A DNA stretch of 64,000 nt from Alphaproteobacteria bacterium (GCA_965116515.1 OZ220705.1:3888331-3952330), one strand, 5' to 3'. Shown: positions 10,722-47,696, counted from the first letter of the stretch. A program made the numbers and translations. The notes: generated by a model from the letters alone, not told the origin.

Positions 10722-10788
10722 CACGGATTCCCCCGATGCAGAGGGTAGTCTAGTCTGTCCGCTGGAACCGAGACCAGACCGACGAACC

Positions 10789-12300
10789 ATGACGGCACCT
10801 CCCAACATCCTCCTTGTCATGATGGATCAACTCGCGCCTCAGGTGCTGAAGCCCTACGGCGGCACGGTGTGCCGGACGCCCAATCTGGAGCGGTTGGCCG
10901 GCGAGGGCGTTGTGTTCGAGAACGCCTACTGCAATTACCCGATCTGTGCGCCGGCTCGCTTCAGCCTTATGTCAGGCCGCATGCCGAGCCGCATCGGAGC
11001 GTTCGACAACGCAACCGAATTTCCATCCGAGGTCCCGACCTTCGCACACTATCTTCGTGCAATGGGCTATCACACGTGCCTGTCCGGCAAGATGCACTTC
11101 GTCGGTGCGGACCAGCTTCACGGTTTCGAGGACCGGGTGACGACCGACGTCTATCCCGCCGACTTCTCGTGGACCAGCGACTGGTCGCTGGGTCCGACCT
11201 TCTGGGAACCGTGGTTCCACTCGGTGCGGATGGTGCGCGATGCGGGACCTTGGCGGCGCAGCGTCAACACGAGCTACGATGAGGAGGCAACCGTCGAGGC
11301 CTGCCGCTGGCTGCACGATCACGCCGACCGGGCCGATGGCCGGCCCTTCTTCCTGGCGGCGAGCTTCATCAGCCCGCACGACCCCTACCTGGCGCCTCCG
11401 TCTCACTGGGATCTCTACACGGACGACGGGATCGACGATCCCAGGGTCGGCGACATCCCGCTCGAGGAGCGTGACCCCCACAGTCGCAGATTGTACTACA
11501 CGATCGGTCGCCACATGGAGACGATCGGTCCTGCGGACGTCCGCCGGGCGCGACGCGCCTACTATGCCGTGATGAGCTGGCTCGATGACCGCATCGGGCG
11601 GATCCTGGAGACCCTCAAGGCCATCGACGCAGACGACCATACGATCGTCGTCCTGACAGCCGATCACGGAGACATGCTTGGCGAACGCGGCCTGTGGCTC
11701 AAGATGAGCTTCTTCGAGTGGTCGGTGCGCGTACCGCTGATCGTGCATGCGCCGACGCTCTATCGAGCGCGCCGGGTCAGGGAGAACGTGTCCCTGCTGG
11801 ATCTCTTTCCGACCTTCCTGGAATGGGCCGGCGACGGCGAACTGCCGGAACTGTTCGCGCCGATCGACGGCGCCAGCGTCGCCGGACTGGCCGCCGGACA
11901 CAGTGACGGCTGGCCTGATGTCGTCGGTAGCGAGTACTGCGGTGAGGGCGCGTCCTCACCGGTGCTCATGATTCGCCGCGGACGCTGGAAGTACATCCAT
12001 TGCGAGGATGATCCGCCCCTGCTCTTCGACATCGAGCAGGATCCTGACGAACTCGTCAACCTCGCCGGGACACCGGAGGTCGGCGGCGTCGAGACCGATC
12101 TTGCCGGCGAGGTCTGTCGCTGGTGGGATACCGCGGCCCTGAAGGATCGCGTGATCGAGAGTCAGAGGCGCAGGAAGTTCCTTCACGCCGCCCTGTCGGT
12201 TGGCCGTCGCACACCCTGGGACTGGCAACCGGTGCGTGATGCCTCGCGTGAGTATGTGCGTGGCGACAGTGACGTGGATGGCATCTATGACAGGACCTGA
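10789..12300 (+). CDS. betC: Choline-sulfatase
   Basis: Sulfatase signature CAPARFSLMSGR (C-x-P-x-R). N-terminus MTAPPNILLVMMDQL. About 500 aa with the typical BetC length and C-terminal region. I chose the ATG at 10789. The listed ORF 10630.. overlaps the divergent gene. Confidence 0.8.
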   Translation: MTAPPNILLVMMDQLAPQVLKPYGGTVCRTPNLERLAGEGVVFENAYCNYPICAPARFSLMSGRMPSRIGAFDNATEFPSEVPTFAHYLRAMGYHTCLSGKMHFVGADQLHGFEDRVTTDVYPADFSWTSDWSLGPTFWEPWFHSVRMVRDAGPWRRSVNTSYDEEATVEACRWLHDHADRADGRPFFLAASFISPHDPYLAPPSHWDLYTDDGIDDPRVGDIPLEERDPHSRRLYYTIGRHMETIGPADVRRARRAYYAVMSWLDDRIGRILETLKAIDADDHTIVVLTADHGDMLGERGLWLKMSFFEWSVRVPLIVHAPTLYRARRVRENVSLLDLFPTFLEWAGDGELPELFAPIDGASVAGLAAGHSDGWPDVVGSEYCGEGASSPVLMIRRGRWKYIHCEDDPPLLFDIEQDPDELVNLAGTPEVGGVETDLAGEVCRWWDTAALKDRVIESQRRRKFLHAALSVGRRTPWDWQPVRDASREYVRGDSDVDGIYDRT

Positions 12301-19602: not shown

Positions 19603-19833
19603 ATGGCCACCACCGCTGACCGCATCAGGCAGATCATCGCCGATAATCTCGACGTTGGCCGCGATCCCGACTTCGACGCGAAACTCGTTGACTCCGGCGT
19701 GTCCTCGGTAGACTGCATCGCGTTTTTCAAGATTGTGAACGACGAGTTCAGCCTGGGACTGGTCGCCGAGGAGTGCCGGCAATTCGAGACACTGAATCAA
19801 TTGGTTCAGCACATCGATCAGAAGGCGGCATAA
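19603..19833 (+). CDS. Stand-alone acyl/peptidyl carrier protein (77 aa) with an atypical phosphopantetheine-site motif
   Basis: Four-helix-bundle-sized ORF MATTADRIRQIIADNLDVGRDPDFDAKLVDSGVSSVDCIAFFKIVNDEFSLGL. Candidate attachment Ser within DSGVSSVD (19690..19713). GGAGAC RBS. Sits directly upstream of a PPTase and a PKS. Confidence 0.65.
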   Translation: MATTADRIRQIIADNLDVGRDPDFDAKLVDSGVSSVDCIAFFKIVNDEFSLGLVAEECRQFETLNQLVQHIDQKAA

Positions 19834-19889: not shown

Positions 19890-20340
19890 ACGGTGCGACA
19901 GGATGCCCGGGCCAGGGTTCCCGACCGAACAACGGGCTCCTCGCCATGGATTCTTGAGGGCCGGCCGGCCTTGGCGCCTTCCGGACTTTCGCCTGCGGCC
20001 AACCGGCACACGTGCCGCAAAGGGGTCACGGAAAAGCCGAACCGGCGTCGGCCGGGCATCCGCATCCACTCTGTCAGCAGGTGGCGACATGGCCGCCACG
20101 CCCAAAGCTGCTGCCTGTCCAACTCGACGAGTAGCCAGCCGGCACCGGAACTTCGAGTCGAACGGTGCCCATGGCGTCCGGTTGTGCGCCGGAACGCTTC
20201 CAGCGTCCTGGTACAGTCCGTGCCGATCACCCGGGCGGGGCTATCGAGGACCCTGGTCGACGCCGAGAGACGGGCCCCATTTGCGGATCTGAATGCGGCC
20301 GGTAGAGTCCCCGGAGGCATGGCGACCAAGGACTCCGACC

Positions 20341-21045
20341 ATGACCCTGACGGAGAACACATGGTGGACTCACTGGCGCGAGGTGGATGGCACGATCGTT
20401 CTCCATGTCGATCTGGCGCCGGATGCCGGGCGCGAGGCGCGGGCGGTCTCGTTGCTCGACGACAGCGAGAAAGCGCGCGGCCTCCGCTTCCGGTCCGTTT
20501 GTGCCCGCCGCGAGTTCGTCCTTTGCCGCGCGGCGCTTCGCGTCAGCCTCGCCGAGCGCCTGGGCTGCTCTGGTGAACGGCTTTCGTTCGGCTTCCTGGA
20601 ACACGGCAAGCCCTACGCGAGGCTCGCCGACCGGTCCGTGGACATCGCGTTCAACGTCAGTCACAGCGGCGGGCACGGCCTGATCGCGATCACCGACAAG
20701 GCGAGTGTCGGTGTCGACGTGGAGGAACGTGCGCCTCAGCGCGATCTCGACGGCATCGGCAGCCTGGTGTACGGCCCCAGGGAGCAGCGGTTCCTGGGGA
20801 ACGCTTCGGATCGGGAGAAAGTGCAGATCTTCTATCGCCTGTGGAGCATGAAGGAAGCGTTGATCAAGGCACTCGGCACCGGGTTTTCCCTGAACCCGTC
20901 GGGATTCGAGGTTCCCGGACCGATGCTGCGGGGAGAACGGTCCGGCATCTTCCGCTTCCCGCACCTGCCGTCACAGGCGTGGCGGGTCCTGGACCTGGGG
21001 GAGTCCCGATTCGCCGCCGCGCTTGCCTACCGGCTGTCGTCATGA
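20341..21045 (+). CDS. 4'-phosphopantetheinyl transferase, Sfp/EntD type
   Basis: Motifs GKPY, FNVSHSGGHGLIAI, VGVDVEE and WSMKEALIKALGTG. ATG at 20341 with an AAGGA RBS. The listed ORF starts at 20293. Confidence 0.85.
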   Translation: MTLTENTWWTHWREVDGTIVLHVDLAPDAGREARAVSLLDDSEKARGLRFRSVCARREFVLCRAALRVSLAERLGCSGERLSFGFLEHGKPYARLADRSVDIAFNVSHSGGHGLIAITDKASVGVDVEERAPQRDLDGIGSLVYGPREQRFLGNASDREKVQIFYRLWSMKEALIKALGTGFSLNPSGFEVPGPMLRGERSGIFRFPHLPSQAWRVLDLGESRFAAALAYRLSS

Positions 21046-21198
21046 CCCGGATCGATACCGGCGACGAACCGCCGGACAGCGAGTCCCGGTGCTAACCGCC
21101 GTGGCCGGAGTCCGCCCTTGTCCCGATGCGGTCGTTCGCCCAGCCTGCCGCCGCACGGCTTGCGGCCTGCGCGATGGCACATTGCACCGACAGGAATC

Positions 21199-22950
21199 AT
21201 GAGCGCCGCCGAAACGCGAGGCATCCGCTTCCAGCCCGATGAGACGCCGGCTCCGGCGCTCTCGCTCGGCCTGGGACTGCAGATCGTCATTCTCTCACTG
21301 GCTGGCATCATCCTGATCCCGACGATCGTGATGCGGGCCGGCGGAGCAAGCGAGAGCTATCTCTCCTGGGCGGTGTTCGCAACGGTCGCGATCTGCGGCG
21401 CTACAACGATCCTGCACGCAATCCGGATCTGGCGAATCGGCACCGGCCACCTGGTCGTTATGGGTCCCACCGGGGTCTACATCGCCGTCTGCATTACCGC
21501 GGTTGCCGAGGGCGGGCCAGCGCTTATGGCGACCCTGGTTGTTGTCTCGTCCGTGCTTCCTCTCGTGCTGGCCGCGCGGATGCCGCTGTTCCAGCGGCTG
21601 CTGACACCGACGCTTTCGGCAACGGTCCTGATGTTGATCCCCGTGACGGTAATGCCTGCCGTGTTCGGTCTCCTGACCGCAGTACCGGACGGCACGTCCG
21701 TTCTGGCATCGGCGCTGAGCGCCCTTGCGGTACTCCTCGTCATCGTAGGCATCGCTCTGAAGGTGACGGGCGCGCCACGCTTGTGGGCGCCGATCGTCGG
21801 GGTGGTCGCAGGCTCCGTTGTCGCCGCCGCGTTCGGCCTCTACGACACGGGCCGCGTCATCGAGGCGCCGTGGATCGGTTTTCCAACGGGCGAGTGGGCG
21901 GGCTTCGATCTCGAATTCGGCCCGGCATTCTGGGCGCTTCTGCCGACCTTTCTGCTCGTTACCGTCATTGCCTCGGTCCGGACCATCAGCGGCGCCGTGG
22001 CCATTCAGCGGGTTTCGTGGCGCCGGCCGCGGGCGGTGGATTTCCGCGCGGTACAGGGCGCGATCACAGTCGACGGTCTGGGCAACCTGCTCACCGGTCT
22101 CGCCGGTACGGTGCCAAACGCGTCCACGACCGTCGGCGCATCCGTAACCGAGTTGACGGGTGTCGCCAGCCGCCACGTTGGTATCGCCACCGGCGCAATC
22201 CTTGTCGTAATAGCGTTTCTGCCGAAGGCGCTCGCCGTCGTGCTGGCGATACCGGGACCGGTGGTCGCCGCCTATCTCGGGGTGTTGCTGGCCATGATCT
22301 TCATTGTCGGAATGAGTGTCGCGATGCGCGACGGGATCGACTACCGCAAGGGCCTAATCATTGGCGTCTCCTTCTGGGTCGGTATCGGTTTCCAGTACGA
22401 CATGATCTATCCCGAACATGTTTCCGAGATCGCCGGTGGACTCCTGCGAAACGGGGTCATGACAGGAGGCGCCGCGGCCATCCTGATGACACTTTTCGTG
22501 GAATTGACGAAACCACGCCGCAGCCGTCTCGTGGTTGCGTTCGAGACCTCCTCGGTGCCGAAGATCAGGAGTTTCCTCGGCATCTTCGCCGACCGGAACG
22601 GGTGGGGCGCGGCGATGGCCGCGCGGCTCGACGCTGCCTGCGAGGAGACGCTTCTCACTCTTCTCCACCAGGACGACGGGTCAGACGTGGCGAATCCGGG
22701 CCGGCGTCTGCGTCTGGCGGTCCACAGGGAAGGCACCGGCGCGGTCGTCGAATTCGTCGTGGCCGCACAGGACGTCAACCTCCAGGATCGCCTCGCGCTG
22801 ATCGGCGACGAGCCGGGCGCAACGCCTGCGGAGCGGGAGGTGTCGCTGCGACTCTTGCGCGGGTTGGCATCCTCTGTGCATCACCAGCAGTATCACGGTG
22901 TCGACATCGTGACCGTTCGCGTTGCGGCGCCGATGTCCGGCGCCGATTGA
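21199..22950 (+). CDS. NCS2-family (nucleobase:cation symporter-2 / xanthine-uracil permease-like) transporter with a ~150-aa C-terminal cytoplasmic extension of unknown function
   Basis: TM1 motif PALSLGLGLQIVIL. NCS2 signature region TTVGASVTELTGVASRHVGIATGAILVVIAFLPK, which I compare with UraA ...TGVASRYVG.... The C-terminal soluble part (FETSSVPKIRSF...VEFVVAAQD...) is not recognisable with confidence. Confidence 0.7.
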   Translation: MSAAETRGIRFQPDETPAPALSLGLGLQIVILSLAGIILIPTIVMRAGGASESYLSWAVFATVAICGATTILHAIRIWRIGTGHLVVMGPTGVYIAVCITAVAEGGPALMATLVVVSSVLPLVLAARMPLFQRLLTPTLSATVLMLIPVTVMPAVFGLLTAVPDGTSVLASALSALAVLLVIVGIALKVTGAPRLWAPIVGVVAGSVVAAAFGLYDTGRVIEAPWIGFPTGEWAGFDLEFGPAFWALLPTFLLVTVIASVRTISGAVAIQRVSWRRPRAVDFRAVQGAITVDGLGNLLTGLAGTVPNASTTVGASVTELTGVASRHVGIATGAILVVIAFLPKALAVVLAIPGPVVAAYLGVLLAMIFIVGMSVAMRDGIDYRKGLIIGVSFWVGIGFQYDMIYPEHVSEIAGGLLRNGVMTGGAAAILMTLFVELTKPRRSRLVVAFETSSVPKIRSFLGIFADRNGWGAAMAARLDAACEETLLTLLHQDDGSDVANPGRRLRLAVHREGTGAVVEFVVAAQDVNLQDRLALIGDEPGATPAEREVSLRLLRGLASSVHHQQYHGVDIVTVRVAAPMSGAD

Positions 22951-23040: not shown

Positions 23041-26000
23041 ATGACGGATCCGGACAGGCCGGAAGGCCGCAAACAGGGAGTGTCCGCCGGCAGCGAGGCC
23101 ATGGCGATTGTAGGCATGGCCTGCCGTTTCCCCGGCGCAGACGACCTCTTCGCCTTCTGGCGCATGCTGGAAGAGGGGAAAAGCGGCGTGATCGAAGGGG
23201 TTCCCGGGTCCGGCGTTGGTCGCATCGGTGAACTGTTCGCTGAAGGCGAGGGGCGGGCCCCGGCCTGCAGGTTCGGCGCCTACCTCGACGAACTCGACCG
23301 GTTCGACGCCGCCTTCTTTCGCATCTCGCCGGTGGAAGCGCAGTTTCTCGACCCCCAGCAGCGAATGATGCTGGAAACCTGCTGGCGCGCACTGGAGGAT
23401 GCCGGCATCGACCCCGACAACCTGAAGGGCAGCCGCACCGGCGTCTTTGCGGGGATCAGCAACAACGAGTATCGCGGGCTGATCCTGGAAAGAACCCGGC
23501 CTGACGAACCCGCCGCGAGCCTTTACTCCGTCACCGGCACCTCGTTCAACACCGCGATCGGCCGGGTCTCTTTCGCTCTCGGCCTGGAGGGCCCGGCGCT
23601 CGCGCTCGATACGGCCTGCTCGTCCTCCCTGGTCGCGATACATCAGGCGGTGACCGCCCTGCAGCGAGACGAGGCGGACGTGGCACTGGCGGGCGGTGTG
23701 CATGCGATCCTCTCCGGTCGTCTGCTGGAGATGCGCGCCAATGCCGGCATGCTTTCGCCGGACGGCCGGTGCGCCACCTTCGATGCCGCTGCCAACGGCT
23801 ACGTGCGCGGTGAGGGCTGCGGGATCGTGGTGATCAAGCGTCTCTCCGATGCCGAGGCCGACGGCGACCGCATATGGGCGGTGATCCGGGGCACCGCGCT
23901 GAACCAGGATGGCGCCAGCCCGGGTCTGACCGTGCCAAGCGGTCCGGCCCAGGAAAAAGTCATGGAGTCCGCGCTGAAACAGGCTGGCCTCTCGCCTTCG
24001 GATGTGGACTACGTGGAGGCGCACGGGACAGGCACCGAGGTTGGCGACCCCATTGAAGCGCAGGCAACCGGCACGGCTTATGGCCACGGACGCGATCCCG
24101 AACGCCCGCTGCTGATCGGCTCGGTCAAGACCAATATCGGCCACCTTGAAGCGGCAGCCGGAGTCGCTGGGGTGATCAAGACGGTGCTGGCCATGAGGCG
24201 GGGCGTCATCCCCAGGCACCTCCATTTCCGGGATCCCAGTCCGGAAATCGACTGGGACCGTCTGCCCCTTCAGGTGACGGCAGAGCCCACCGAATGGCCA
24301 CGGTCTGCCGGTGCGCCGCCGCGCGCGGGGGTGAGCGGTTTCGGCTGGTCGGGGACCAACGCCCATGTGGTGCTGGAAGGGTATGGTGACCGGCACGACA
24401 CCGTCGCCGAAGATCCAGGGCGCTGGACCGACGGGCCGCCGGGGTGCATCGCCATCATTCAACCGTCCTCAATCGAAGGAGCGGCGCCGGTCGCGAAGAC
24501 GCTGGCCTCGCGCGGGTCGCGAATCCTGCCTCTCTCGGGCAGATCGAACGAAGCCCTGAGGGAACTCGCGGGATCGTACCTGTCCTGGCTCGATGAAGGC
24601 ACCCGCGCCGACAGTGCGGAAGCGCTCGCCGACATGGCCTGGACGGCCGCCGTCGGACGCAGTCATTTCGAGTGCCGGTCGGCAGTGGTGTTCCATGACG
24701 CCGGATCCCTGCGCGCCGCCCTGCAAGACCTCCGGGAAGCAGGCGGCACGCGGGTGCCGGCGGCGGCGAGGAAGGTGGCGTTCGCCTATACCGGACAGGC
24801 CAGCCAATGGCCTGGCATGGGCGAAGCGCTCTACGCAAGCGAGCCGGCGGTGCGCGCCGTGCTCGACCGCTGCGACGCGATCCTCGCCAAGGAACGGGAT
24901 GCGTCACTGCTGGACGTGATGTTCGGCCGACCGGGAGCCGCGGGTGACCTCGACGAGCCCCGGTGGAAACAGCCGGCGATCTATGCCCTTGAATGCGCGC
25001 TCACCGCGCTGTGGGACACTCTCGGCGTACGGCCGAATGTCGTGGTCGGACACAGTCTTGGCGAGATCGCGGCGGCGCAGGCTGCGGGCGTGTTCAGTCT
25101 GGAAGAAGGACTGCGCTTCGCCGCAGCCCGGGGCGGGCTGATCGGGGCGCTTCCCGGCGACGGCGCGATGGCCGCGGTCTTTGCGCCCGCTCCGCGTGTC
25201 GCCGAGGCACTGGACGAACACAATGCGGCTTCGGACGGCATTGGCCTTTGTATCGCGGTGGACAACGGCGCCCAGCAGGTGATCAGCGGTCCGGCGGTGG
25301 AGATCGACGCGATCCTGGGACGCCTGGAAGGTCAGGACATCCGGGCCGTGAAACTGCGCAGGAGCCCGGCCTACCACAGCGCGATGATCGACCCGGCCCT
25401 GGACGACCTGGAAGGCGCATTGGCCGGAACCGCGTTCGCTCCGCCTTCGATCCCGTTCGTCAGCAATCTGACCGGCCGCGCGCTGGAGGCCGGTGTCGCG
25501 CCGGACGCGTCCTATTGGCGGCGTCAGGTGCGCGAGCCGGTGGCCTTCCGTGCGTGCATCGAGACCCTGGCGGAATTTGGCGTGGACGCGATCATCGAGA
25601 TCGGTCCCCATGCCGTGTTGGGCCCGATGGCAACGATGGCATGGCCGGAATCCGCAGCCGAACCTCCTGTCGTGCTCTCAAGCCTGCGGCGGCCGGGCAA
25701 GGATGAGGAGCCGCCGCCGGCGGGTTCGGGCGGCGGCTTCATGGAGGCGGTTGCCGGCGCCTACGATGCGGGCCTGGCGCTCGACTTTCCGGGACTGTTC
25801 ACGGGCGAAACGCGCTGCCGCATCGCCCTGCCCGGCTATGCCTTCCAGCGAGAACGCTACTGGGTCGAGGGAACCAGGCGGCGGTCTCAGACCGGCCACC
25901 CCTTGCTGGGAACACGCCACGAGTCCGCGAGCGGCGAGGTCGCCTTCGACACCGAGGTCTTTCCCTCGGACCCGACGTGGCTCAACGACCATCGGGTGTT

Positions 26001-29000
26001 CGGCCGTCTGATTGCGCCCGGCGCGCTCTACGGCGCGATGGCCGCCACCAGCATCCGCGGGGATGGCGGAGGGGAAGCTGCGGTCGAGGACTTTCAGATA
26101 CAGAACGCCCTGGTCTTTCCCGAAGACGACGCGGAGGAGAGATCGAACGACAGGGGCCGGCGGATGCAGGTCCTGCTGGACGACGACGACCACGGTTCCC
26201 GCCGGATCCGCATTCTCAGCAGGGGCGACAGCGAGGACACGTGGACACTGCATGCAGAGGGCCGCATCCCGACAGACTCCTCAGGTTCGACGCGCCCACC
26301 ATCGCGCCTCGATGTCGAGGGAATGAAGGCCGGCCTCTTGCCGGTCGACCTCGCCGCTTACTACCGCTCCAAGGCGGCTGTCGGAATCGATCTCGGTCCC
26401 TCCTTCCGCACGCTGCAGGCGCTGTGGGCCCACGCCGGTGAAGCGGTCGCGGACGTGGTGCTCCCCGTCGAGCGAGAAGGTGATGCGCTCGACGTGCATC
26501 CGCTCGTGCTCGACGGCTGCTTCCAGGCCGTCGGCGCTGCGCGCAACGCCGGCAGCGACGGCGAGGACGTCACCTACCTCCCCTTCGCCTGGGAGCGACT
26601 GTGGCTGGCGGGCAGTCTGCCGGGTCGGCTGGTTTGTCATGTGAAGATGAGGGAAATTCCGCCGGGTCCGCAAGCGGATGCCGATGACTATGAGCCCGAG
26701 GTTCGGGCCGCCGACTTGTGGCTCTATGATCCGGACGGCGTACTGGTCGGCGAACTGGCCGGCTTTACGGTCAAACGCGCGACACGGGCAGCGTTGCTGG
26801 CTTCCGTGGAAGGAATTGACGATCTCATCTACGAGATCGTCTGGCGGGACAGCTCACTTGCACCCGGCATGTTGCCTGCGGATTTCCTGACCGGGCCGCG
26901 GGACATTGCGGCCGACACCCAACTCTTCAGCAACTACCTGGCGAACGAGGATGTGGGTGCGCAAAGCCGGGCCGCGCTGCTTGCGGATCTGGAGCAGTTG
27001 GCGCGCGCCTACGCCCTCCAGACTCTGGACAGGATCGGCTGGCAACGCATCGCCGGCGAACGCGTGGAGTCCGAGGCGTTGCGGGAGCATCTGGAGGTCG
27101 GCGACCACCACCGGCGACTGTTCCGCCGCATGCTGGACATGCTGGCTCAGGACGGGGTTCTGGAGGACCAGGGCGACAGCTTCGTCGTCAACGTTTCCTC
27201 CGGGGCACCTCTCCCGGGGGGACTGGCGAGCGACCCGGATGCCGTGGCTGGCGACATGGCGGCGCGGTACGCGCATGGCACAACCGAAATCGGCCTGTTT
27301 CGACGAAGCGCCGATGCCCTGGCCGATGTCCTGCAGGGACGCATGGATCCGTTGACATTGCTGTTCAGCAGCGGCGAACCGACAGCGGCCGACCTCTATC
27401 TGAAGGCGCCGGTGGCCCGCGCCGCGAACCGGATGCTGGCGGACGCTACGGCGGCATTGCTGCGAGCCCTGCCGGAAGGGCGCACGCTGCGTATACTGGA
27501 GATCGGGGCCGGCACCGGCTCGGCCACCGCGGCCATACTCCCGGAGTTTCCGGAAGGGCGCTACGAGTACACCTATACGGACATCTCGGCCGGCTTCTTC
27601 GCGGAGGCGGAATCGCGCTTCGGCGGTGCCGAGGCATCGATCAACTACCGGGTGCTGGATATCGAGAAGGACCCGGTGGAACAGGACTTCGACCGGCACG
27701 GCTACGACCTCGTGATCGCTTCCAATGTGCTGCACGCGACACGATATCTGAACGAGACGCTGGCGCACTGCCTCAAGGTCCTCGCCCCGTCGGGCCAGCT
27801 TGTCGCGCTGGAGAACCTGCGTGGCCAGGGATGGCTCGACCTGACCTTCGGGCAACTCGACGGCTGGTGGCGATTTGCCGACACGTATCGCCCACACCAT
27901 GCCCTCGCCACTCCGGCGGTGTGGCGCCAGGCATTGGGTGACGCCGGCTTCGGGGACATCGCGATCCTTGGCTTCGACGAGTCCGACCCGAACGCCAATC
28001 CGGACCGGGGGGTGATCCTTGCCCGGGGTCCGGCGGACGTGAGCGAGACGCCGGGTATCTGGGTCCTGGCCGCCGACCGCGGTGGCGTGGCGGCGGATCT
28101 CGCGGCGGATCTCGCGGCACACAACCAGACGGTGGTGCTTGCCGGACCGCAAGCGCCCCCCGGCGAACCAACGGAGGCCGCGGGCGTCGTCAAGACTCTC
28201 GTGGAGGCGGAGCGACGCGAGTCGTGGACATCCCTGCTCGAAGACCTGCCGGGCGACCTTGCAGGTGTCGTTCATCTTGCCGGGCTGGACGGCCATGGCG
28301 CGCAGGCGACGACCGCGGAACTGGCCGAGGACACCCGCCATGCGGCGGCGAGCGCGCTGGCACTGACCCAGGCGCTGGTGGACAGCGATCTGGCCCTGTC
28401 GAAGGGTCTCTGGTTCCTGACACGGGGCGCGCAGATCCTGGAGCGCGAGCGTGGCGGACAACTGACCGGCGCCGCTCTGTGGGGCTTCGGCAAGGTGGCG
28501 GCACGGGAAGCGCCCCAGCTGCAACCGAGAATGCTGGATCTCGATCCCGACGATGCGGTCCTGCCATCCGGCCTGGCGGACGAGTTCCTCCATCCCGATG
28601 CGGAAACACACATCGCCCGTCGATTCGGCCGCCGCCTTGGCGCGCGGCTGGTCCGCGCAGAAGCGGTCGCGGACCGGCTGATCCTGCCCGAGGAGCCCGG
28701 TTGGGAACTGAAGCCCGATGCCGGCGGCTCGCTCGACTCGATCGGGATCATGCAGGTGCCGCCGCTCAGGCTCGAACCCGGAGAGGTCCGCGCAGCGGTC
28801 GACGCCTTCGGGCTCAATTTCCGCGACGTTTTCATCGCCATCGGCGTCGTCGACGACTTCATGGGCGGGGAATTCTGCGGCCGCGTCCTCGAAGTCGGAG
28901 AGGGTGTTACCGGCGTCTCCGTGGGAGACCGCGTCGTCGGACTGACGTTCCGCAACTACGGCTCCGAGACCGTGACTCTGGAAAAGATGATCGTGCCCGC

Positions 29001-32000
29001 ACCACCGGGCTTCTCGGTCAGCGAGCTTGCGACATTTCCGACGGCGTTTGTTTCAGCCGCGCTTTCGTTCGAACTCTCGGGGCTGAAGGCGGGCGATCGC
29101 GTGCTCATCCACGCCGGGGCAGGCGGGGTAGGCCTTGCGGCCATCCAGTTGGCGCAGGCGGCGGGCGCGGAGGTCTTCGCCACGGCGAGTGCGCGCAAGC
29201 GGGACCATCTCCGATCGCTGGGCGTGACTCATGTGTTCGACAGCCGCACGACGGCCTTCGGCCAGGATATCCTGGAGGTGACAGACGGCGCCGGCGTCGA
29301 CATGGTGCTGAACAGCCTGACCGGCGAGGGCTTCATCGAGACCAGCCTGTCATGCCTCGCCCGAGGCGGGCGCTTCGTCGAAATGGGCCGGGTCGGCATC
29401 CTGAGCCACGACGAGATGGCGGCTGCGCGTCCGGACGTGTCCTATGCCATCCTCATGATCGACGCTCTCAAGGAGGACGAACCCGCACGCGCCGGTGACA
29501 TCCTGCGCGGCGTGATGGCGCGGCTTGCCGCCGGAGAGTTGACCCCGCTGCTCCACGCGCGATGGCCCGTGGCCGAAGTGGGAGCTGCGATGAAGTGCAT
29601 GCAGGGCGCCCGGCACATCGGCAAGATCGTCTTCACCAACTCGCCGCTCGCCAGGGGAGCCCTGCGGGGTGACCGGAGCTATCTCGTCACCGGTGGACTT
29701 GGCGGCATCGGCTGCGCGGTGGCGGAATGGCTGGCGGACCGCGGCGCCGGTTCCATCGTGCTCAACGGCCGACGGTCTCCCGACCCAGACGTCGAGCGGG
29801 TGATCGAGGCACTCCGCAAGAGGGGAGCCGAGGTGCGGGTGGAAATAGCCGATATGACCGATCCGCCCGCGATGGACGCCATGATGGCGCGGATCGACGA
29901 GGACCTGCCGCCACTCGCGGGCGTGATCCACAGCGTCGGTGTCCTTTCGGACGCCGCGATCGGCAATCAGAGCTGGGAGAACTTCGAAACGGTGCTCTGG
30001 CCCAAGATTCTGGGAGCATGGCATCTGCACAGGGCGACCGAAAATCGCGATCTCGACATGTTCGTTCTCTTCTCGAGTGTCGCGGGCGTTCTTGGTAATC
30101 CGGGCCAGGCCAACCATGCGGCGGCGAATGCGTTCCTCGACCAGCTCGCCGCGCACCGTCGCTCCCTCGGGCTTGCCGGCCAGGTCATTGCCTGGGGCGC
30201 CTGGTCGGAGATCGGGGAGGCTGAGGAACAGCGGGAGCGGATGTCCCGGCGCTCCGCGTCGGGCGGGCTCGAGTGGATCGTTCCGCAACAGGGCATGAGG
30301 GCCTTCGACCGGCTGGTGCGCGAGGACGCCACGGCGTCCGTGGTGCTCGCGCGTGACTGGACGGCGTTTGGAGAATCGCTCGAGAGCCGTCCGCCCCTGC
30401 TGGAGGACCTGTTGTCAGACGGTGCCGACGACGGCGCCGATGATTCCCTGGCCGACGATCTGTTCACCCGCCTGCAGGATGCGCCCGCGGCAATGCGCGA
30501 AGACGTGATGGCGTCGTTTATCCAGGGAGAAATCAAGGCTGTACTCAGGCTTCCTAGACCGCCGGCGCCCACGGTCGGGTTTTTCGACCTGGGCATGGAT
30601 TCCCTGATGGCGGTGGAGTTCCGCAATCGGCTCAACCGCGCCTTCGCAGGCGCTTACACGGCGTCCAATACGGTGGTGTTCGACTACCCCGACATCGCCG
30701 CACTCTCCGCCTTTCTCGCGGATGAGCTTGCCGGAGTCGTGGGCGCCGACGTGCCCGCCGCGCGAACCGTGCCGGCAGCCGTGCGCGATCACGACAACAC
30801 TTCGGACGGCATCGCCATTGTGGGCATGGCCTGCCGATTCCCGGGAGCACCAGATCTGCCGGCTTTCTGGCGTCACCTTGATTCCGGCTCGAGTGCCGTC
30901 ACCGGGGAGCGTCCCGAGACAGGCCCCTGGAGTGGCTACATCGACCATCTGCCCCCGCAATACGCGGAATTCGGCAACGCAGGCTTCATCGACGGGATCG
31001 ATCAGTTCGATGCCCGCTTCTTCGGTATCTCGCCGATCGAGGCACGGCTGGTCGATCCACAGCAACGGATGCTGCTGGAAACGACCTGGCAGGCCCTGGA
31101 GGACGCGGGGATCGACCCCGACCGGCTCAAGGGCAGTCGCACCGGGGTCTATGCCGGCATAGCGAGCAGCGAATACCGCGACCTGATGAGGAACGAGGAT
31201 TACGGTATCGGCTATCTCAGCACCGCTGCGAGCATGGCGGTTGGCCGGCTTTCGTTCCGCTTCGGTCTTGGCGGGCCCGCGATGCCCGTGGAACTCAACT
31301 GCGCTTCATCGCTGGTTGCGGTGCACCATGCCGTCACGGACCTGCGCCTGGGCACGGTGCACATGGCCTTGGCCGGCGGTGCGAGCGCCGTCCTGTCTGC
31401 GCCGGTGACGCGCGAAATGGCTGATCTGGGCCTTCTGTCGCGCGGCGGTGCATGCCGGACCTTCGATGCGAAAGCGGACGGGTTTGTGCGGGGCGAGGGC
31501 TGTGGCGTGATCATCCTCAAGCGTCTTGCAGACGCGGAGGCCGACGGCGATCGGATCTGGGCGGTGATCCGCGGCTCTGCGGTCAACCAGAACGGCGCGG
31601 CCGCCGGTGCAACGGTGCCGAACGGCCCGGCTCAGGAACGGGTGATCGAGCAGGCGCTCTCGCAGGCCGGCTTCGCCCCCGGCGAAGTGGACTACCTGGA
31701 GGCACACGGCGCCGGTTCGGCGTTTGGCGATCCCATCGAGGTACAGGCAGCGGCGGCGGTGTATGGAAGGGAGAGAGCCAGCGACCGCCCGCTACTGATC
31801 GGTTCGGTAAAGACCAGTATCGGACATCTCGAGTCGGCGGCCGGCATCGCCGGACTGATGAAGACCGTGCTGGCCATGAACCGGGGCGCCATTCCCCGCC
31901 ACCTGAACTTCCGGACCCCGAATCCGCTCATCGAGTGGGACCGGTTGCCAGTGCGGGTGACGGAGGAAGCGACCGCCTGGCCATGCGATACCGCCCGACC

Positions 32001-33252
32001 ACCGAGGGCCGGGGTGAGCGCCTTCGGAATCTCGGGAGTCAACGCCCATGTCGTGTTGGAGGGATATGCTGCCGAGGGCCCTGTGCCCGTGGGGCCGGCG
32101 CTGCCGACCGCAGTCTCCCTGCCGAAACCGATTGCCGCTCAACCCCAGGAGGAGATTGCGCTCGCAGCGCGCACCATGCGTCTCTTGCCGCTTTCGGCCA
32201 AGTCGGATGACGCGCTGAGAGCGCTCGCCGAGCGGTACCTTGGATGGCTTGACGAGCGGTCCGACGAACTGGCGCCGGGAGAAGCTGCATCCGGTTCCCT
32301 GCTGTCCGACATGGCATGGACGGCCGGAGTGGGAAGGAGCCATCTTGCACATCGCGCCGGCCTCGTGTTCCGTGACGCCGCGGCGCTGCGGGCGGGTTTG
32401 AAGGCTCTGGTGGCATCCCGGGACCTCCCGGAACCCGGGACACCTGCAAAGGTTGCATTCGCCTACCCGGAGGAGTTGGGCAACTGGACTGCCCTGGCGG
32501 GGACACTCTACGAGATCGAACCGGTGGTCCGGGCGGTACTCGACCGCTGTGAGGCCGCCATGCACGACCGGTGGAACGAGTCGCTGCTCGAAAGACTGTT
32601 CCGCCGAAGCGAACCGGTTGATCCGGCATGGGCGCGGCCCATGGTCTGTTCCCTGGCATGTGCGCTCACGGCGCTCTGGTCGAGCATCGGCATCCGGCCA
32701 GGCGTGGCGATCGGCTGGGGAGCCGGCGAACTGGCGGCAGCCCAGGCCGCCGGCGTCTTCGATCTGGAGCAGGGGCTCACGCTTGCGACGGAACCGGACG
32801 ATGCACCCGAAGTCATCATGCCATCCCCGCCATCGATCAGCCTCGTCAGCAGCGCCACGGGGCGGCTGGTCGATCCAGGCGACATGCCGGACGGAGCTCG
32901 CTGGAGTCGTCAGACGCACGTCCGGGCGGCCCCGGAGCGTTGCGCTGGCACTTTGGCGGAACTGGACGTCGACGCGATGATCGAGATCGGCCCTGGAACC
33001 GAATTCGGATCGATGCTCGCCCGTGCCTCGACGGCGGCTGCCGACAGCGGCGTGGCGGTTTCGATCGAGACCCTGCGGCGATCAGGCGGAGACGAGGACG
33101 GCGGCTTCATCGCTGCGGTCGCCGCAGCCTACGAGGCGGGCCTTGCGGTGTCCTTCGAGGGTCTCTTTGCGGGCGAGGCCAGGCGCCGGATCGCGCTTCC
33201 CGGCTACCCGTTCCAGCGCCGAAGCCACTGGCTCGTGTCGCGCGAACGGTAG
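23041..33252 (+). CDS. Type I polyketide synthase, single 3403-aa ORF. Domain order: KS-AT-DH-cMT-(KR structural subdomain)-ER-KR-ACP-KS-AT0 (degenerate, truncated AT). No TE or R domain.
   Basis: KS1 DTACSSSLVA, EAHGTGT, NIGHLE. AT1 GHSLGE. DH HPLLGTRHESASGEVAFDTEVFPSDPTWLNDHRV. cMT LEIGAGTG. ER HAGAGGVG. KR TGGLGGIG. ACP LGMDSLMAVE. KS2 ELNCASSLVA, EAHGAGS, SIGHLE. Second AT-like region has GWGAGE in place of GHSLGE. Confidence 0.9.
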   Translation: MTDPDRPEGRKQGVSAGSEAMAIVGMACRFPGADDLFAFWRMLEEGKSGVIEGVPGSGVGRIGELFAEGEGRAPACRFGAYLDELDRFDAAFFRISPVEAQFLDPQQRMMLETCWRALEDAGIDPDNLKGSRTGVFAGISNNEYRGLILERTRPDEPAASLYSVTGTSFNTAIGRVSFALGLEGPALALDTACSSSLVAIHQAVTALQRDEADVALAGGVHAILSGRLLEMRANAGMLSPDGRCATFDAAANGYVRGEGCGIVVIKRLSDAEADGDRIWAVIRGTALNQDGASPGLTVPSGPAQEKVMESALKQAGLSPSDVDYVEAHGTGTEVGDPIEAQATGTAYGHGRDPERPLLIGSVKTNIGHLEAAAGVAGVIKTVLAMRRGVIPRHLHFRDPSPEIDWDRLPLQVTAEPTEWPRSAGAPPRAGVSGFGWSGTNAHVVLEGYGDRHDTVAEDPGRWTDGPPGCIAIIQPSSIEGAAPVAKTLASRGSRILPLSGRSNEALRELAGSYLSWLDEGTRADSAEALADMAWTAAVGRSHFECRSAVVFHDAGSLRAALQDLREAGGTRVPAAARKVAFAYTGQASQWPGMGEALYASEPAVRAVLDRCDAILAKERDASLLDVMFGRPGAAGDLDEPRWKQPAIYALECALTALWDTLGVRPNVVVGHSLGEIAAAQAAGVFSLEEGLRFAAARGGLIGALPGDGAMAAVFAPAPRVAEALDEHNAASDGIGLCIAVDNGAQQVISGPAVEIDAILGRLEGQDIRAVKLRRSPAYHSAMIDPALDDLEGALAGTAFAPPSIPFVSNLTGRALEAGVAPDASYWRRQVREPVAFRACIETLAEFGVDAIIEIGPHAVLGPMATMAWPESAAEPPVVLSSLRRPGKDEEPPPAGSGGGFMEAVAGAYDAGLALDFPGLFTGETRCRIALPGYAFQRERYWVEGTRRRSQTGHPLLGTRHESASGEVAFDTEVFPSDPTWLNDHRVFGRLIAPGALYGAMAATSIRGDGGGEAAVEDFQIQNALVFPEDDAEERSNDRGRRMQVLLDDDDHGSRRIRILSRGDSEDTWTLHAEGRIPTDSSGSTRPPSRLDVEGMKAGLLPVDLAAYYRSKAAVGIDLGPSFRTLQALWAHAGEAVADVVLPVEREGDALDVHPLVLDGCFQAVGAARNAGSDGEDVTYLPFAWERLWLAGSLPGRLVCHVKMREIPPGPQADADDYEPEVRAADLWLYDPDGVLVGELAGFTVKRATRAALLASVEGIDDLIYEIVWRDSSLAPGMLPADFLTGPRDIAADTQLFSNYLANEDVGAQSRAALLADLEQLARAYALQTLDRIGWQRIAGERVESEALREHLEVGDHHRRLFRRMLDMLAQDGVLEDQGDSFVVNVSSGAPLPGGLASDPDAVAGDMAARYAHGTTEIGLFRRSADALADVLQGRMDPLTLLFSSGEPTAADLYLKAPVARAANRMLADATAALLRALPEGRTLRILEIGAGTGSATAAILPEFPEGRYEYTYTDISAGFFAEAESRFGGAEASINYRVLDIEKDPVEQDFDRHGYDLVIASNVLHATRYLNETLAHCLKVLAPSGQLVALENLRGQGWLDLTFGQLDGWWRFADTYRPHHALATPAVWRQALGDAGFGDIAILGFDESDPNANPDRGVILARGPADVSETPGIWVLAADRGGVAADLAADLAAHNQTVVLAGPQAPPGEPTEAAGVVKTLVEAERRESWTSLLEDLPGDLAGVVHLAGLDGHGAQATTAELAEDTRHAAASALALTQALVDSDLALSKGLWFLTRGAQILERERGGQLTGAALWGFGKVAAREAPQLQPRMLDLDPDDAVLPSGLADEFLHPDAETHIARRFGRRLGARLVRAEAVADRLILPEEPGWELKPDAGGSLDSIGIMQVPPLRLEPGEVRAAVDAFGLNFRDVFIAIGVVDDFMGGEFCGRVLEVGEGVTGVSVGDRVVGLTFRNYGSETVTLEKMIVPAPPGFSVSELATFPTAFVSAALSFELSGLKAGDRVLIHAGAGGVGLAAIQLAQAAGAEVFATASARKRDHLRSLGVTHVFDSRTTAFGQDILEVTDGAGVDMVLNSLTGEGFIETSLSCLARGGRFVEMGRVGILSHDEMAAARPDVSYAILMIDALKEDEPARAGDILRGVMARLAAGELTPLLHARWPVAEVGAAMKCMQGARHIGKIVFTNSPLARGALRGDRSYLVTGGLGGIGCAVAEWLADRGAGSIVLNGRRSPDPDVERVIEALRKRGAEVRVEIADMTDPPAMDAMMARIDEDLPPLAGVIHSVGVLSDAAIGNQSWENFETVLWPKILGAWHLHRATENRDLDMFVLFSSVAGVLGNPGQANHAAANAFLDQLAAHRRSLGLAGQVIAWGAWSEIGEAEEQRERMSRRSASGGLEWIVPQQGMRAFDRLVREDATASVVLARDWTAFGESLESRPPLLEDLLSDGADDGADDSLADDLFTRLQDAPAAMREDVMASFIQGEIKAVLRLPRPPAPTVGFFDLGMDSLMAVEFRNRLNRAFAGAYTASNTVVFDYPDIAALSAFLADELAGVVGADVPAARTVPAAVRDHDNTSDGIAIVGMACRFPGAPDLPAFWRHLDSGSSAVTGERPETGPWSGYIDHLPPQYAEFGNAGFIDGIDQFDARFFGISPIEARLVDPQQRMLLETTWQALEDAGIDPDRLKGSRTGVYAGIASSEYRDLMRNEDYGIGYLSTAASMAVGRLSFRFGLGGPAMPVELNCASSLVAVHHAVTDLRLGTVHMALAGGASAVLSAPVTREMADLGLLSRGGACRTFDAKADGFVRGEGCGVIILKRLADAEADGDRIWAVIRGSAVNQNGAAAGATVPNGPAQERVIEQALSQAGFAPGEVDYLEAHGAGSAFGDPIEVQAAAAVYGRERASDRPLLIGSVKTSIGHLESAAGIAGLMKTVLAMNRGAIPRHLNFRTPNPLIEWDRLPVRVTEEATAWPCDTARPPRAGVSAFGISGVNAHVVLEGYAAEGPVPVGPALPTAVSLPKPIAAQPQEEIALAARTMRLLPLSAKSDDALRALAERYLGWLDERSDELAPGEAASGSLLSDMAWTAGVGRSHLAHRAGLVFRDAAALRAGLKALVASRDLPEPGTPAKVAFAYPEELGNWTALAGTLYEIEPVVRAVLDRCEAAMHDRWNESLLERLFRRSEPVDPAWARPMVCSLACALTALWSSIGIRPGVAIGWGAGELAAAQAAGVFDLEQGLTLATEPDDAPEVIMPSPPSISLVSSATGRLVDPGDMPDGARWSRQTHVRAAPERCAGTLAELDVDAMIEIGPGTEFGSMLARASTAAADSGVAVSIETLRRSGGDEDGGFIAAVAAAYEAGLAVSFEGLFAGEARRRIALPGYPFQRRSHWLVSRER
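23095..24384 (+). other. PKS domain KS1 (ketosynthase), active-site Cys codon at 23617..23619
   Basis: AIVGMACRFPGA ... DTACSSSLVA ... EAHGTGT ... NIGHLEAAAG ... NAHVVLEGY. Confidence 0.85.
24772..25870 (+). other. PKS domain AT1 (acyltransferase) plus post-AT linker. Active Ser codon at 25054..25056.
   Basis: FAYTGQASQWPGMG ... GHSLGEIAAAQAAG ... RRSPAYHSAMI (unusual specificity motif) ... RIALPGYAFQRERYWV. Confidence 0.8.
25897..26790 (+). other. PKS domain DH (dehydratase)
   Basis: HPLLG...P catalytic-His motif, then LDGCFQ and the hot-dog fold region. Confidence 0.7.
26880..27990 (+). other. PKS domain cMT (C-methyltransferase). Motif I LEIGAGTG at 27496..27519.
   Basis: LRILEIGAGTGSATAAILPEF ... 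YDLVIASNVLHAT. Confidence 0.75.
28050..28620 (+). other. PKS KR N-terminal structural (pseudo-KR) subdomain
   Basis: Rossmann-like region GIWVLAADRGGVAADLAADLAAH ... GVVHLAGLD preceding the ER, as in fully reducing modules. Confidence 0.5.
28680..29640 (+). other. PKS domain ER (enoylreductase, MDR family)
   Basis: LEPGEVRAAVDAFGLNFRDV ... DRVLIHAGAGGVGLAAIQLAQAAGAEVFATAS. Confidence 0.8.
29677..30250 (+). other. PKS domain KR (ketoreductase catalytic subdomain) with His in place of the catalytic Tyr (NHAAAN; His codon CAT at 30115..30117)
   Basis: SYLVTGGLGGIG ... FSSVAGVLGNPGQANHAAANAFLDQLA. Confidence 0.75.
30460..30700 (+). other. PKS domain ACP. Phosphopantetheine Ser codon at 30601..30603.
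   Basis: FFDLGMDSLMAVEFRNRLN. Confidence 0.8.
30808..32067 (+). other. PKS domain KS2 (second ketosynthase). Cys codon at 31300..31302.
   Basis: GIAIVGMACRFPGAP ... VELNCASSLVA ... EAHGAGSAFGDP ... SIGHLESAAG ... NAHVVLEGY. Confidence 0.8.
32449..33252 (+). other. PKS AT0: degenerate, shortened acyltransferase-like remnant (GWGAGE; Ala codon 32722..32724 where the catalytic Ser is expected). It is followed directly by the stop codon.
   Basis: KVAFAYPEELGNWT in place of FAYTGQASQWPGMG. IGWGAGELAAAQAAG. Only about 160 aa lie between this motif and the RRIALPGYPFQRRSHWL linker-like end, compared with about 260 aa in AT1. Confidence 0.7.
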
Positions 33253-44846: not shown

Positions 44847-45007
44847 GCTCCCTTCTTCAATCCTGTCGGGAATGACGTGAGCCACGCCTGTCCCGAAACG
44901 CTGCTCTGCGAATCGCTCCGCTCCCGGATGTTCCCGTCATGGTGCGCCAGCGGACTTCACGTCCCGGCGCGAGTTGGGGTAGATTGCAGTATTGGCGGGA
45001 GGTGACA

Positions 45008-46231
45008 ATGCAGCCACACGACATCCCTGCGGTGGATGACCTGATCGCCCGGCAACGATCCGGTTTCACCCTGGAACAGCCGTTCTACCGGGACCCAGGG
45101 ATCTTCAGACGGGACATGGAGAAGGTCGTTTCCAGGTCCTGGCTCTATGTCGCCCACGAGAGCGAAATTCCCTCGAAGGGCGACTACCTTGTCTACCGGG
45201 TCGGCGAGGAGTCGATCATCCTGGTACGCGGCCGTGATCACATGGTCCGCGCCTTCTTCAATGTCTGCCGTCATCGCGGCAGCCAAATCTGCCTCGAGGA
45301 ACGCGGCAATGCCGGCAAGCTCGTGTGCCCCTACCATGCCTGGACCTACGATCTCGACGGCCGCCTCATCGCCGCACGTTCCATGCCAGAGGGATTCAAC
45401 AAGACGGACTACCCGCTTCATGGATGCTCGGTCCGCGTGGCCCACGGTCTCATCTTCATCTGTCTGGCCAGTGCCGATGATCCGAATGTCGCGGATTTCA
45501 GCGGAGTTGCCGACCTGCTCGACACCTACGCCGGACTGCATCACCTGAGGGACACGAAGATCGTGCACCGCGAGGTCTATCCGACCTACGCCAACTGGAA
45601 ACTCGTCGTCGACAACTTCCGCGAGTGCTATCACTGCTCACCGGCACACCCCGAGTACACGATGGTCAATGCCTACGTGAAGGCGCACGACCGCGACCCG
45701 GAGACCTACCGTCCGGTGATCGATGCCTGGGCCGAGAAGACGAAAGAGCTCGGCCACCCCGTGGGCTGGACAAATGGCGACATCGGTGACCCGCGCCAGC
45801 CCCACAGCGTATGGCGCCAGCCCATCAGGGAGGGCTATCTCACGCTTTCGGAGGACGGACAACCCGTCGCTCCCCTGCTTGGCGCCCTGGAACACTGGGA
45901 TGGTGGAGAGACCGCCTTCACACTCGGCCCGCTGTCCTATGCCTACCTGTGTGCCGATCATCTCGCGATGTTCCGTTTCACGCCGGTCACGCCGGAATTC
46001 AGCGAGGTGCTCGTGACCTGGCACGTTCGCGCCGATGCCGACCTGGACCGGGACGTTGACCTCAAGCGCCTGATCTGGATGTGGGACGTCACCACCGTCG
46101 AGGACACGAAGATCATCATCGACAACCAGAAGGGCGTGAACTCCACGCGCTACGCACCCGGGCCCTATGCGACCCTGGAGGATTACACGGCAGCCTTTAC
46201 CGACTGGTACCTTGACCGCATTGCCTCCTGA
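45008..46231 (+). CDS. Rieske [2Fe-2S] aromatic-ring-hydroxylating-type oxygenase alpha subunit, GbcA/Stc2/CntA-like (quaternary-amine N-demethylating monooxygenase family)
   Basis: Rieske CRHRGSQIC...CPYHAW. Mononuclear-iron region NWKLVVDNFRECYHCSPAHP. GGGAGG RBS before the ATG at 45008. Confidence 0.75.
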   Translation: MQPHDIPAVDDLIARQRSGFTLEQPFYRDPGIFRRDMEKVVSRSWLYVAHESEIPSKGDYLVYRVGEESIILVRGRDHMVRAFFNVCRHRGSQICLEERGNAGKLVCPYHAWTYDLDGRLIAARSMPEGFNKTDYPLHGCSVRVAHGLIFICLASADDPNVADFSGVADLLDTYAGLHHLRDTKIVHREVYPTYANWKLVVDNFRECYHCSPAHPEYTMVNAYVKAHDRDPETYRPVIDAWAEKTKELGHPVGWTNGDIGDPRQPHSVWRQPIREGYLTLSEDGQPVAPLLGALEHWDGGETAFTLGPLSYAYLCADHLAMFRFTPVTPEFSEVLVTWHVRADADLDRDVDLKRLIWMWDVTTVEDTKIIIDNQKGVNSTRYAPGPYATLEDYTAAFTDWYLDRIAS

Positions 46232-46775: not shown

Positions 46776-47696
46776 ATGGAAACTGCTAGGAAGTTGTTGT
46801 TCGCCGCCGGCGCGGCCCTCCTGTTCACGGTACCGGCCGGGGCGGACGTCCCCGAATCGGAGAGGCCTATCATCGTTCCATTGCACAACTGGACCGGCGC
46901 CCAGATCTCCTCGACCGTTTCGGGAGAGATTCTCAGGCGCATGGGCTACAATGTCGAGTACGTGGCGATCTCCGCGCTGGCCGCGCCTCAGGGAATCGCC
47001 GACGGCGAGATCACCTATTCGCCCGAGTTGTGGAGCAACAACCTGGGTGATGTCTATCCGGTCATGATCGAGAACGGCGACATCGTCGACATCGGTGACC
47101 TGGGACTCGATGCCCGGGAAGGCTGGCTCTATCCACTCTATGTCGAGGAGGAGTGCCCGGGTCTGCCCGCTTGGGAAGCCTTCCTCGATTGCCACGAGCT
47201 CTTTGCCACCACCGAGACCATTCCCAACGGCCGCTTCCTTGACTACCCGTCAGAATGGCGCAGTCGCGGCGGCGATCTCATTCGCGAACAGGAGCTGCCG
47301 TTCGATGTTGTTCCCGCGGGCAGTGAAGGAACGATGATCGCGGAACTCAATTCGGCAGTGGAACGCGAGGCACCGCTCGTCATGATGTTCTGGGCCCCCC
47401 ACTGGGTCCTGTCCGTTCACGAGACCGGATGGATCGACATTCCGGAGGACCTGGTGAACCAGTACAGCATGCACAAGCCGCGCATCTTCAAGGTCGTCTG
47501 GCCCGGGACTCACGACGAATGGCCAGTGGCGGCCCGGTTCCTCGAGAGCTTCACGCTCGCGAACGGGCCTCAGGAAGTCATGATGGATCTGATCGACAAC
47601 CAGCAACAGGATCTCATCGAAGTGACGAACCGGTGGCTCGACGACAACGTGGACGTCTGGCAGCCAATGGTCGACGCCGCCATGGCAGGTTCCTGA
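46776..47696 (+). CDS. Periplasmic glycine betaine/choline-binding protein, ChoX/OpuAC family (orphan; no cognate permease or ATPase adjacent)
   Basis: Signal peptide METARKLLFAAGAALLFTVPAGA. Collinear resemblance to ChoX-type proteins as I recall them (VPLHNWTGAQISSTV..., LVMMFWAPHWVL...). Confidence 0.65.
   Translation: METARKLLFAAGAALLFTVPAGADVPESERPIIVPLHNWTGAQISSTVSGEILRRMGYNVEYVAISALAAPQGIADGEITYSPELWSNNLGDVYPVMIENGDIVDIGDLGLDAREGWLYPLYVEEECPGLPAWEAFLDCHELFATTETIPNGRFLDYPSEWRSRGGDLIREQELPFDVVPAGSEGTMIAELNSAVEREAPLVMMFWAPHWVLSVHETGWIDIPEDLVNQYSMHKPRIFKVVWPGTHDEWPVAARFLESFTLANGPQEVMMDLIDNQQQDLIEVTNRWLDDNVDVWQPMVDAAMAGS

Follow-up and report, generated by a model that had tools for sequence, protein, structure and literature searches.

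Histidine at the catalytic tyrosine position of a ketoreductase in a putative methyl-branched fatty-acid synthase from an Alphaproteobacteria bacterium

The 64,000-nucleotide stretch of Alphaproteobacteria bacterium DNA analyzed here (GCA_965116515.1 OZ220705.1:3888331-3952330, referred to below as the window) contains a gene for a large polyketide synthase (PKS) whose ketoreductase (KR) domain carries histidine where a catalytic tyrosine is expected. By Pfam, the 3403-aa open reading frame (ORF) encodes a ketosynthase (KS), an acyltransferase (AT), a dehydratase (DH), a C-methyltransferase (cMT or MT), an enoylreductase (ER), the KR, an acyl carrier protein (ACP), a second KS, and an AT-like domain, in that order (Table 1). 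Active-site motifs are intact in the first KS (Cys-His-His) and the first AT (GHSLGE), as well as in the DH, MT, ER, ACP, and second KS. The KR scores 210 bits against the PF08659 profile of "complex" short-chain dehydrogenases/reductases (SDRs), for which the curated cutoff is 22.6. Positions 30100-30130 of the + strand read ...GGCCAGGCCAACCATGCGGCGGCGAATGCG..., which in the frame of the ORF at 23041-33252 translates as GNPGQANHAAANAFLDQLA. KRs of PKSs are recognized by a catalytic Tyr within a YxxxN motif, and in this column the window KR has His2359.

The placement of His2359 was examined with a phmmer search of the KR against all PDB chains. The best solved relative was the KR of mycocerosic acid synthase (MAS, E=9e-48), followed by AmphB KR2 and EryKR1. 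Over a stretch that is ungapped from the catalytic Ser onward, His2359 is matched to the catalytic Tyr of MAS (GSPGQGAYAAANS) and of AmphB KR2 (GSGGQPGYAAANA), and the catalytic Tyr of the spinosyn module 2 KR and of EryKR1 falls in the same column. The solved KRs in this alignment have motifs such as GQGAYAAAN and GQPGYAAAN, and in the motif region the top five PDB alignments all lack His at this position. An earlier note on this DNA had read the catalytic Tyr as replaced by an in-frame His codon, and had proposed alignment to characterized KRs, with their Ser and Lys, as the way to check it. The sequence, the ORF frame, and the gap-free alignment agree with that reading, and the Ser and Lys align as well. 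A different Tyr at the catalytic position had been allowed for in the note, but the alignment to solved KRs places none there, and no other Tyr in the window KR is able to take that position.

The remainder of the KR site is present (Table 1). By comparison with KR structures in general, the Arg2244-Arg2245 pair would form the NADPH 2'-phosphate site. Two features match the signature of B1-type KRs, namely LSD at residues 2302-2304 and Leu rather than Trp at position -8 from His2359, while GQANHAAAN, with Gln at -3 and Ala instead of Pro at +2, matches the non-epimerizing signature. By these motif rules, drawn in part from the KR-motif literature, the window KR is most likely B1-like. It shares the lack of the catalytic Tyr with the inactive C-type KRs, but those have also lost the NADPH motif and/or the Asn, Ser, or Lys, all of which the window KR keeps. 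The KR of MAS (PDB 9d2y, 5bp4) and modular B-type KRs have the same Lys, Ser, Asn, and cofactor site. MAS further resembles the window protein in being a fully reducing module of the KS-AT-DH-ER-KR-ACP type that makes methyl-branched fatty acids, and differs from it in having the canonical Tyr. The methyl branches of MAS come from methylmalonyl-CoA and not from a C-methyltransferase domain.

Table 1. Positions of the PKS gene, its domains and KR residues, and adjoining genes in the window.
Feature	Position	Strand	Basis or remark
Stand-alone ACP, 76 aa, DSGVSS	19603..19833	+	tblastn with the ACP adjoining homolog P0248; ORF
Sfp-type phosphopantetheinyl transferase	20293..21045	+	Pfam ACPS
Permease	21118..22950	+	Pfam Xan_ur_permease
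PKS gene, 3403 aa, KS-AT-DH-cMT-ER-KR-ACP-KS-AT°	23041..33252	+	ORF list and translation, Pfam, active-site motifs
DH domain, HxxxGxxxxP (His984) and DGCFQ	25897..26796	+	Pfam, motifs
C-methyltransferase domain, residues 1469-1638, SAM motif LEIGAGTG	27445..27954	+	Pfam, motifs
ER domain, HAGAGGVG	28777..29631	+	Pfam, motifs
KR catalytic subdomain, residues 2213-2390, PF08659	29677..30210	+	Pfam E=3.5e-62
NADPH-binding motif TGGLGGIG, residues 2217-2224, intact	29689..29712	+	
Arg2244-Arg2245	29770..29775	+	
LSD motif, residues 2302-2304, B-type "LDD" position	29944..29952	+	
Catalytic Lys2322 (WPKILG)	30004..30006	+	aligned to Lys of MAS, AmphB
Catalytic Ser2346 (LFSS)	30076..30078	+	phmmer alignment
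His2359 (CAT) at the catalytic Tyr position	30115..30117	+	sequence, translation, phmmer alignment
Asn2363 of the (Y/H)xxxN motif	30127..30129	+	aligned to MAS, AmphB
Lid residue Glu2393	30217..30219	+	
ACP domain, GMDSL	30520..30717	+	Pfam, motifs
Second KS, Cys-His-His intact	30808..32130	+	Pfam, motifs
Terminal AT-like domain	32428..33240	+	motif GWGAGE at 32713-32730, nucleophilic Ser lost
Alpha/beta hydrolase, 50% identical to the hydrolase beside homolog P0248	33204..34247	-	

Conservation was assessed among the 120 best matches to the KR in a collection of 5.8 billion proteins. At the Tyr position 83 of these have His and 16 have Tyr, while the other 21 are fragments that lack the motif region. 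The window protein itself gave no record in an exact look-up. The loci closest to the window, in Alphaproteobacteria metagenome-assembled genomes (MAGs) with ~79-80% DNA identity, carry His, as do 58/58 representatives of the sup-like clade, the group with the architecture of the window PKS. A Tyr codon (TAT or TAC) misread through a sequencing or assembly error would take only a single T-to-C change to give His, and the earlier note had raised this as a reservation. With His in 83/99 close relatives that include the motif, throughout the sup-like clade, and in the ~79-80% identical loci, we regard the probability of such an error as negligible. Nearly all of the close relatives (P0001-P0120) are fragments of 150-420 aa that lie on long contigs from ENA, a pattern suggesting either that metagenome assemblies often break up these giant PKS genes through frameshifts or gene calling, or that short proteins are favored by the word pre-filter.

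We also scanned a species-representative genome set with a degenerate DNA pattern for GQxNHAAANAFLD, which matched at least 120 genome stretches. The matches listed are mostly from MAGs of Chloroflexota, Acidobacteriota, Gemmatimonadota, Latescibacterota, Binatia, Nitrospirales, Rhodothermales, and Alpha- and Gammaproteobacteria, and also include cyanobacteria, Micromonospora, Streptomyces, and Amycolatopsis. The His codon in these matches is CAC in 67 cases and CAT in 55, and the use of both codons points to selection on the amino acid. From the matched loci we extracted 122 KRs with His at this position (His-type KRs), 39-90% identical to the window KR, and counted residues only at positions outside the search pattern. 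The Lys is conserved in 121/121, the Ser in 120/122, the Asp of LxD in 118/119, and the first Arg in 114/114, and the Gly positions of the glycine motif are invariant wherever the alignment covers them.

An independent sample consisted of 150 representative large PKSs from an exhaustive HMMER search, with 496 KRs, of which 462 have Tyr, 22 have His, and 12 have another residue. A complete set of the six other functional residues is found in 21/22 His-type and 278/331 Tyr-type KRs, but in only 2/10 of those with another residue. Since the rest of the site is kept alongside His and is seldom complete alongside other replacements, His behaves on this comparison as Tyr does and unlike an inactivating substitution. 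The earlier note expected a KR without the Tyr to be inactive as a rule; this holds for the other substitutions, where the rest of the site decays too, and fails for His.

These counts bear directly on the possibility that the window KR is a dead C-type domain, that the DH and ER are vestigial, and that the intermediates leaving the enzyme are of the beta-keto or alpha-methyl-beta-keto kind. In textbooks the general acid of SDRs and KRs is Tyr, mutants with Tyr changed to Phe are inactive (review PMC7327777), and the prediction rules cited in PMC12997852 would call such KRs inactive. Nonetheless the cofactor site and other catalytic residues are intact both in the window and in 122 diverse His-type KRs, both His codons are in use, and the DH, ER, and MT motifs are undamaged. 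True decay in this PKS family looks different. Wherever this AT is truly terminal in related loci (24/24), it has lost the nucleophilic Ser and the residue beside it is hypervariable, while GHS is kept in 48/49 in-module ATs. Judged against the scrambled terminal AT, the KR site does not have the appearance of a vestige. Together with the hydroxylated product of HMWP1, the yersiniabactin synthase protein whose KR also has His, this makes a dead KR unlikely. The earlier note had observed that DH and ER are kept in the module, as their intact motifs (HxxxGxxxxP and DGCFQ, HAGAGGVG) bear out, and had left a choice between a KR that is non-canonical and a reducing loop that is in part vestigial, with beta-keto or methylated beta-keto products. 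The first is favored and the second disfavored by the intact KR residues, near-invariant in the 122 His-type KRs, by the intact DH, cMT, ER, and ACP motifs, and by HMWP1 with its His and reduced product.

Several known systems have the same replacement. A study from 2026 reported Tyr-to-His changes in the KRs of HMWP1 (yersiniabactin), MicC (micacocidin), and AgrA (agrochelin), so that these, like the window KR, have His at the catalytic Tyr column (PMC12997852). They were "predicted to be inactive", in conflict with their reduced products, as yersiniabactin and agrochelin II have the keto group reduced to a hydroxyl (PMC12997852). We found irp1, encoding HMWP1, in E. coli Nissle 1917, where the module is KS-AT-MT-KR and reads LYSSAAATLGAPGQSAHALACGYLD; its KR motif, GAPGQSAHALACGYLD, places His in the same column as His2359. 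Like the window KR, that of HMWP1 lies directly downstream of an in-module C-methyltransferase and keeps the NADPH motif, Lys, and Ser, but its module is without DH or ER and belongs to a hybrid of a nonribosomal peptide synthetase (NRPS) and a PKS. A cyanobacterial locus from Chrysosporum bergii (L002) has the order MT-KR[His]-ACP followed by KS-AT-DH-KR, with the motif GNAGQANHAAANAFLD and a KR 44% identical to the window KR. With 100% identity to a fragment from Cylindrospermopsis raciborskii and 86% identity to Kamptonema formosum, this protein is probably CyrB of the cylindrospermopsin NRPS-PKS. In the literature on KRs, a review from 2020, with Keatinge-Clay 2012 as its source, describes the Tyr as "sometimes replaced by histidine" (PMC7327777), and the variant is absent from a 2024 survey of KR motifs. 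On the sequence evidence gathered here the His variant is a natural and widespread one, previously mentioned in passing, and reflects neither error nor decay.

A reduced product might also arise if the KR fold and NADPH site were kept for a non-reductive role, structural or epimerase-like, with reduction supplied in trans. An "alternative mechanism" has been proposed for the HMWP1 family (PMC12997852), and C2-type KRs that only epimerize are known (PMC7327777). The C2-type KRs lose the NADPH motif, however, which is intact in the window KR, and no SDR or other candidate reductase was found near the PKS in the window or adjoining the homolog P0248. Miller et al. are said to have reconstituted yersiniabactin in vitro in 2002 from HMWP1, HMWP2, YbtE, and YbtU alone, a set that reportedly suffices. 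Such a role seems very unlikely for the window KR.

His-type KRs are associated with in-line C-methyltransferases. Among complete modules of the 150 representative PKSs, 13 His-type KRs are accompanied by an MT and 5 are not, versus 1 and 424 for the Tyr type, and within single proteins His occurs in the MT modules and Tyr in the remaining ones. In the genome loci, an MT is present in 53 of 58 complete His-KR modules and in 0 of 8 Tyr-KR modules; nearly all of those 58 also have DH and/or ER, with the DH-MT-ER arrangement of the window in 41. Both samples are biased, the first of them toward relatives of the query, and hence a metagenome sample was selected on the MT domain alone. The KRs downstream of the MT there divide into 16 with His, 24 with Tyr, and 1 with Ala. 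His thus accounts for ~40% of KRs in MT modules versus ~1% elsewhere, a roughly thirty-fold enrichment in counts that are confounded by the shared ancestry of module types. We considered whether His is obligatory in cMT modules, but this idea was dropped, as Tyr is present in 24 of the 41 MT modules whose KR residue could be read. Conversely, actinomycete His-KRs are found in modules without room for an MT. His is enriched in MT modules, yet is neither necessary nor sufficient.

The column that covaries most strongly with His versus Tyr is the lid position (Glu2393 in the window KR, alignment column 226). Met is found here in ~60% of Tyr-type KRs at every distance, but just once among 132 His-type KRs, a set that covers the seemingly independent actinomycete cases. 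A His2359-Glu2393 dyad was considered and rejected, because the Glu is not conserved outside of the sup-like clade (Ile or Ala in cyanobacteria, Arg in HMWP1).

These patterns raise the possibility that His marks a KR subclass specialized for in-line cMT modules, be it by holding back or limiting reduction of the beta-keto intermediate until after its methylation, or by accommodating alpha-methyl or gem-dimethyl substrates. This would refine, and does not exclude, an active KR with His as the general acid. The module counts, the His/Tyr split by MT within single proteins, and the near absence of the lid Met speak for it, whereas the Tyr-bearing MT modules, the actinomycete modules, a near-identical pair of KRs that differ in His versus Tyr (described below), and the confounding of the counts by shared module ancestry weigh against it. 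We consider such a specialization possible, but well short of an even chance.

The near-identical pair consists of two orthologous KRs and shows an interchange of the residues. One KR with His (L001) and one with Tyr (L013) have 95% DNA identity and differ at 10/233 residues, and the motif GNRGQAN(H/Y)AAAN is otherwise identical between them. The first lies in a Bryobacterales-labeled MAG (L001:2427-3125) and the second in an Alphaproteobacteria-labeled MAG (L013:53-751), and such closeness across the two labels suggests that the region was transferred horizontally in recent time or that a contig was binned wrongly. A rough neighbor-joining tree of 430 KRs requires at least 20 His/Tyr changes, with a largest pure-His clade of 58 representatives, and the nearest neighbors of the actinomycete His-KRs are of the Tyr type. 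A single origin of His was rejected on these grounds. Relatives of the cyanobacterial KR are divided almost evenly, 45 with His versus 44 with Tyr. No column is enriched for Tyr in the His-type KRs, and the idea of a compensating Tyr elsewhere in the domain was rejected accordingly.

The loci closest to the window come from MAGs of uncultured bacteria of many phyla and have the same KS-AT-DH-MT-ER-KR-ACP-KS-AT order. With a single fully reducing, C-methylating module of the form KS-AT-DH-MT-ER-KR-ACP and with ACP, phosphopantetheinyl transferase, permease, and hydrolase genes as neighbors, the window cluster resembles the sup (sponge symbiont ubiquitous) PKS cluster, SupA-E. SupE is listed as a permease (table in PMC3908369). 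By architecture and gene set the window cluster is a candidate sup cluster of the kind known from sponge symbionts. The ACP and hydrolase pair is also found beside a 73%-identical PKS homolog (L203).

Other details of the locus can be noted here. The substrate-specificity motif of the first AT is PAYHS (residues 775-779, 25363-25377), which is neither the malonyl HAFH nor the methylmalonyl YASH signature. Downstream of the terminal KS-AT° didomain (30808-33252) there is neither an ACP nor a thioesterase, and the didomain may work with the stand-alone ACP. The hydrolase ORF, on the - strand, shares 49 bases with the PKS ORF at the 3' end of the latter. Surrounding genes encode a choline-sulfatase-like sulfatase (10630-12300), a glycine-betaine-type binding protein (46776-47696), and a Rieske oxygenase (44939-46231), all of kinds that are common in marine host-associated bacteria.

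The explanation that we favor, at a probability of about 0.8, is that the window encodes an active B1-like KR that uses His as its general acid within a sup-like synthase of methyl-branched fatty acids. In this scheme His2359 would stand in for Tyr and protonate the carbonyl oxygen while NADPH delivers the hydride, with Ser2346, Lys2322, Asn2363, and the cofactor site unchanged. The KR would then supply the D-beta-hydroxyacyl-ACP on which the DH and ER of its module, both intact, depend, and this would make the enzyme a fully reducing, C-methylating module, probably iterative and sup-like, with methyl-branched fatty acyl chains as its product. His is established as the general acid in other carbonyl reductases, such as the lactate and D-2-hydroxyacid dehydrogenases, and by analogy it would take this role in the SDR fold of a KR. 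Several observations weigh against this explanation. The HMWP1 KR is only 35% identical to the window KR and has Cys in place of the motif Asn (HALAC), the representative sample includes one degenerate domain among its 22 His-type KRs, and the authors who described HMWP1, MicC, and AgrA propose an "alternative mechanism" of reduction (PMC12997852). In addition, the searchable literature and the best PDB matches yielded neither an enzyme assay nor a structure for any His-type KR, and for this reason the proposed activity is argued from conservation and product structures. On that footing, the window KR is most likely active, with His2359 as the proton donor and a methyl-branched product.

The distinction matters because the prediction of polyketide products hinges on the activity call made for each KR, and by the usual rule a KR without the catalytic Tyr is called inactive. 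Applied here, that rule would predict a beta-keto compound in place of a saturated fatty acyl chain with methyl branches, and the same mis-call would recur in hundreds of related clusters from uncultured bacteria of the sponge-associated type, cyanobacteria, and proteobacteria. The His in HMWP1, MicC, and AgrA is a contradiction still unexplained in the 2026 paper (PMC12997852). The breadth of conservation, the interchange of His and Tyr, and the enrichment with cMT domains turn it into a concrete and testable hypothesis, that of an alternative general acid in the SDR fold. A more speculative extension is that His-type KRs form a mechanistically distinct class, B-type, with an imidazole general acid and no lid Met, that has coevolved with in-line C-methyltransferases and reduces after methylation. 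If this were true, Tyr-requiring rules would mis-call His-type KRs as inactive and give the wrong products for their synthases, including the abundant lipid synthases of sponge symbionts.

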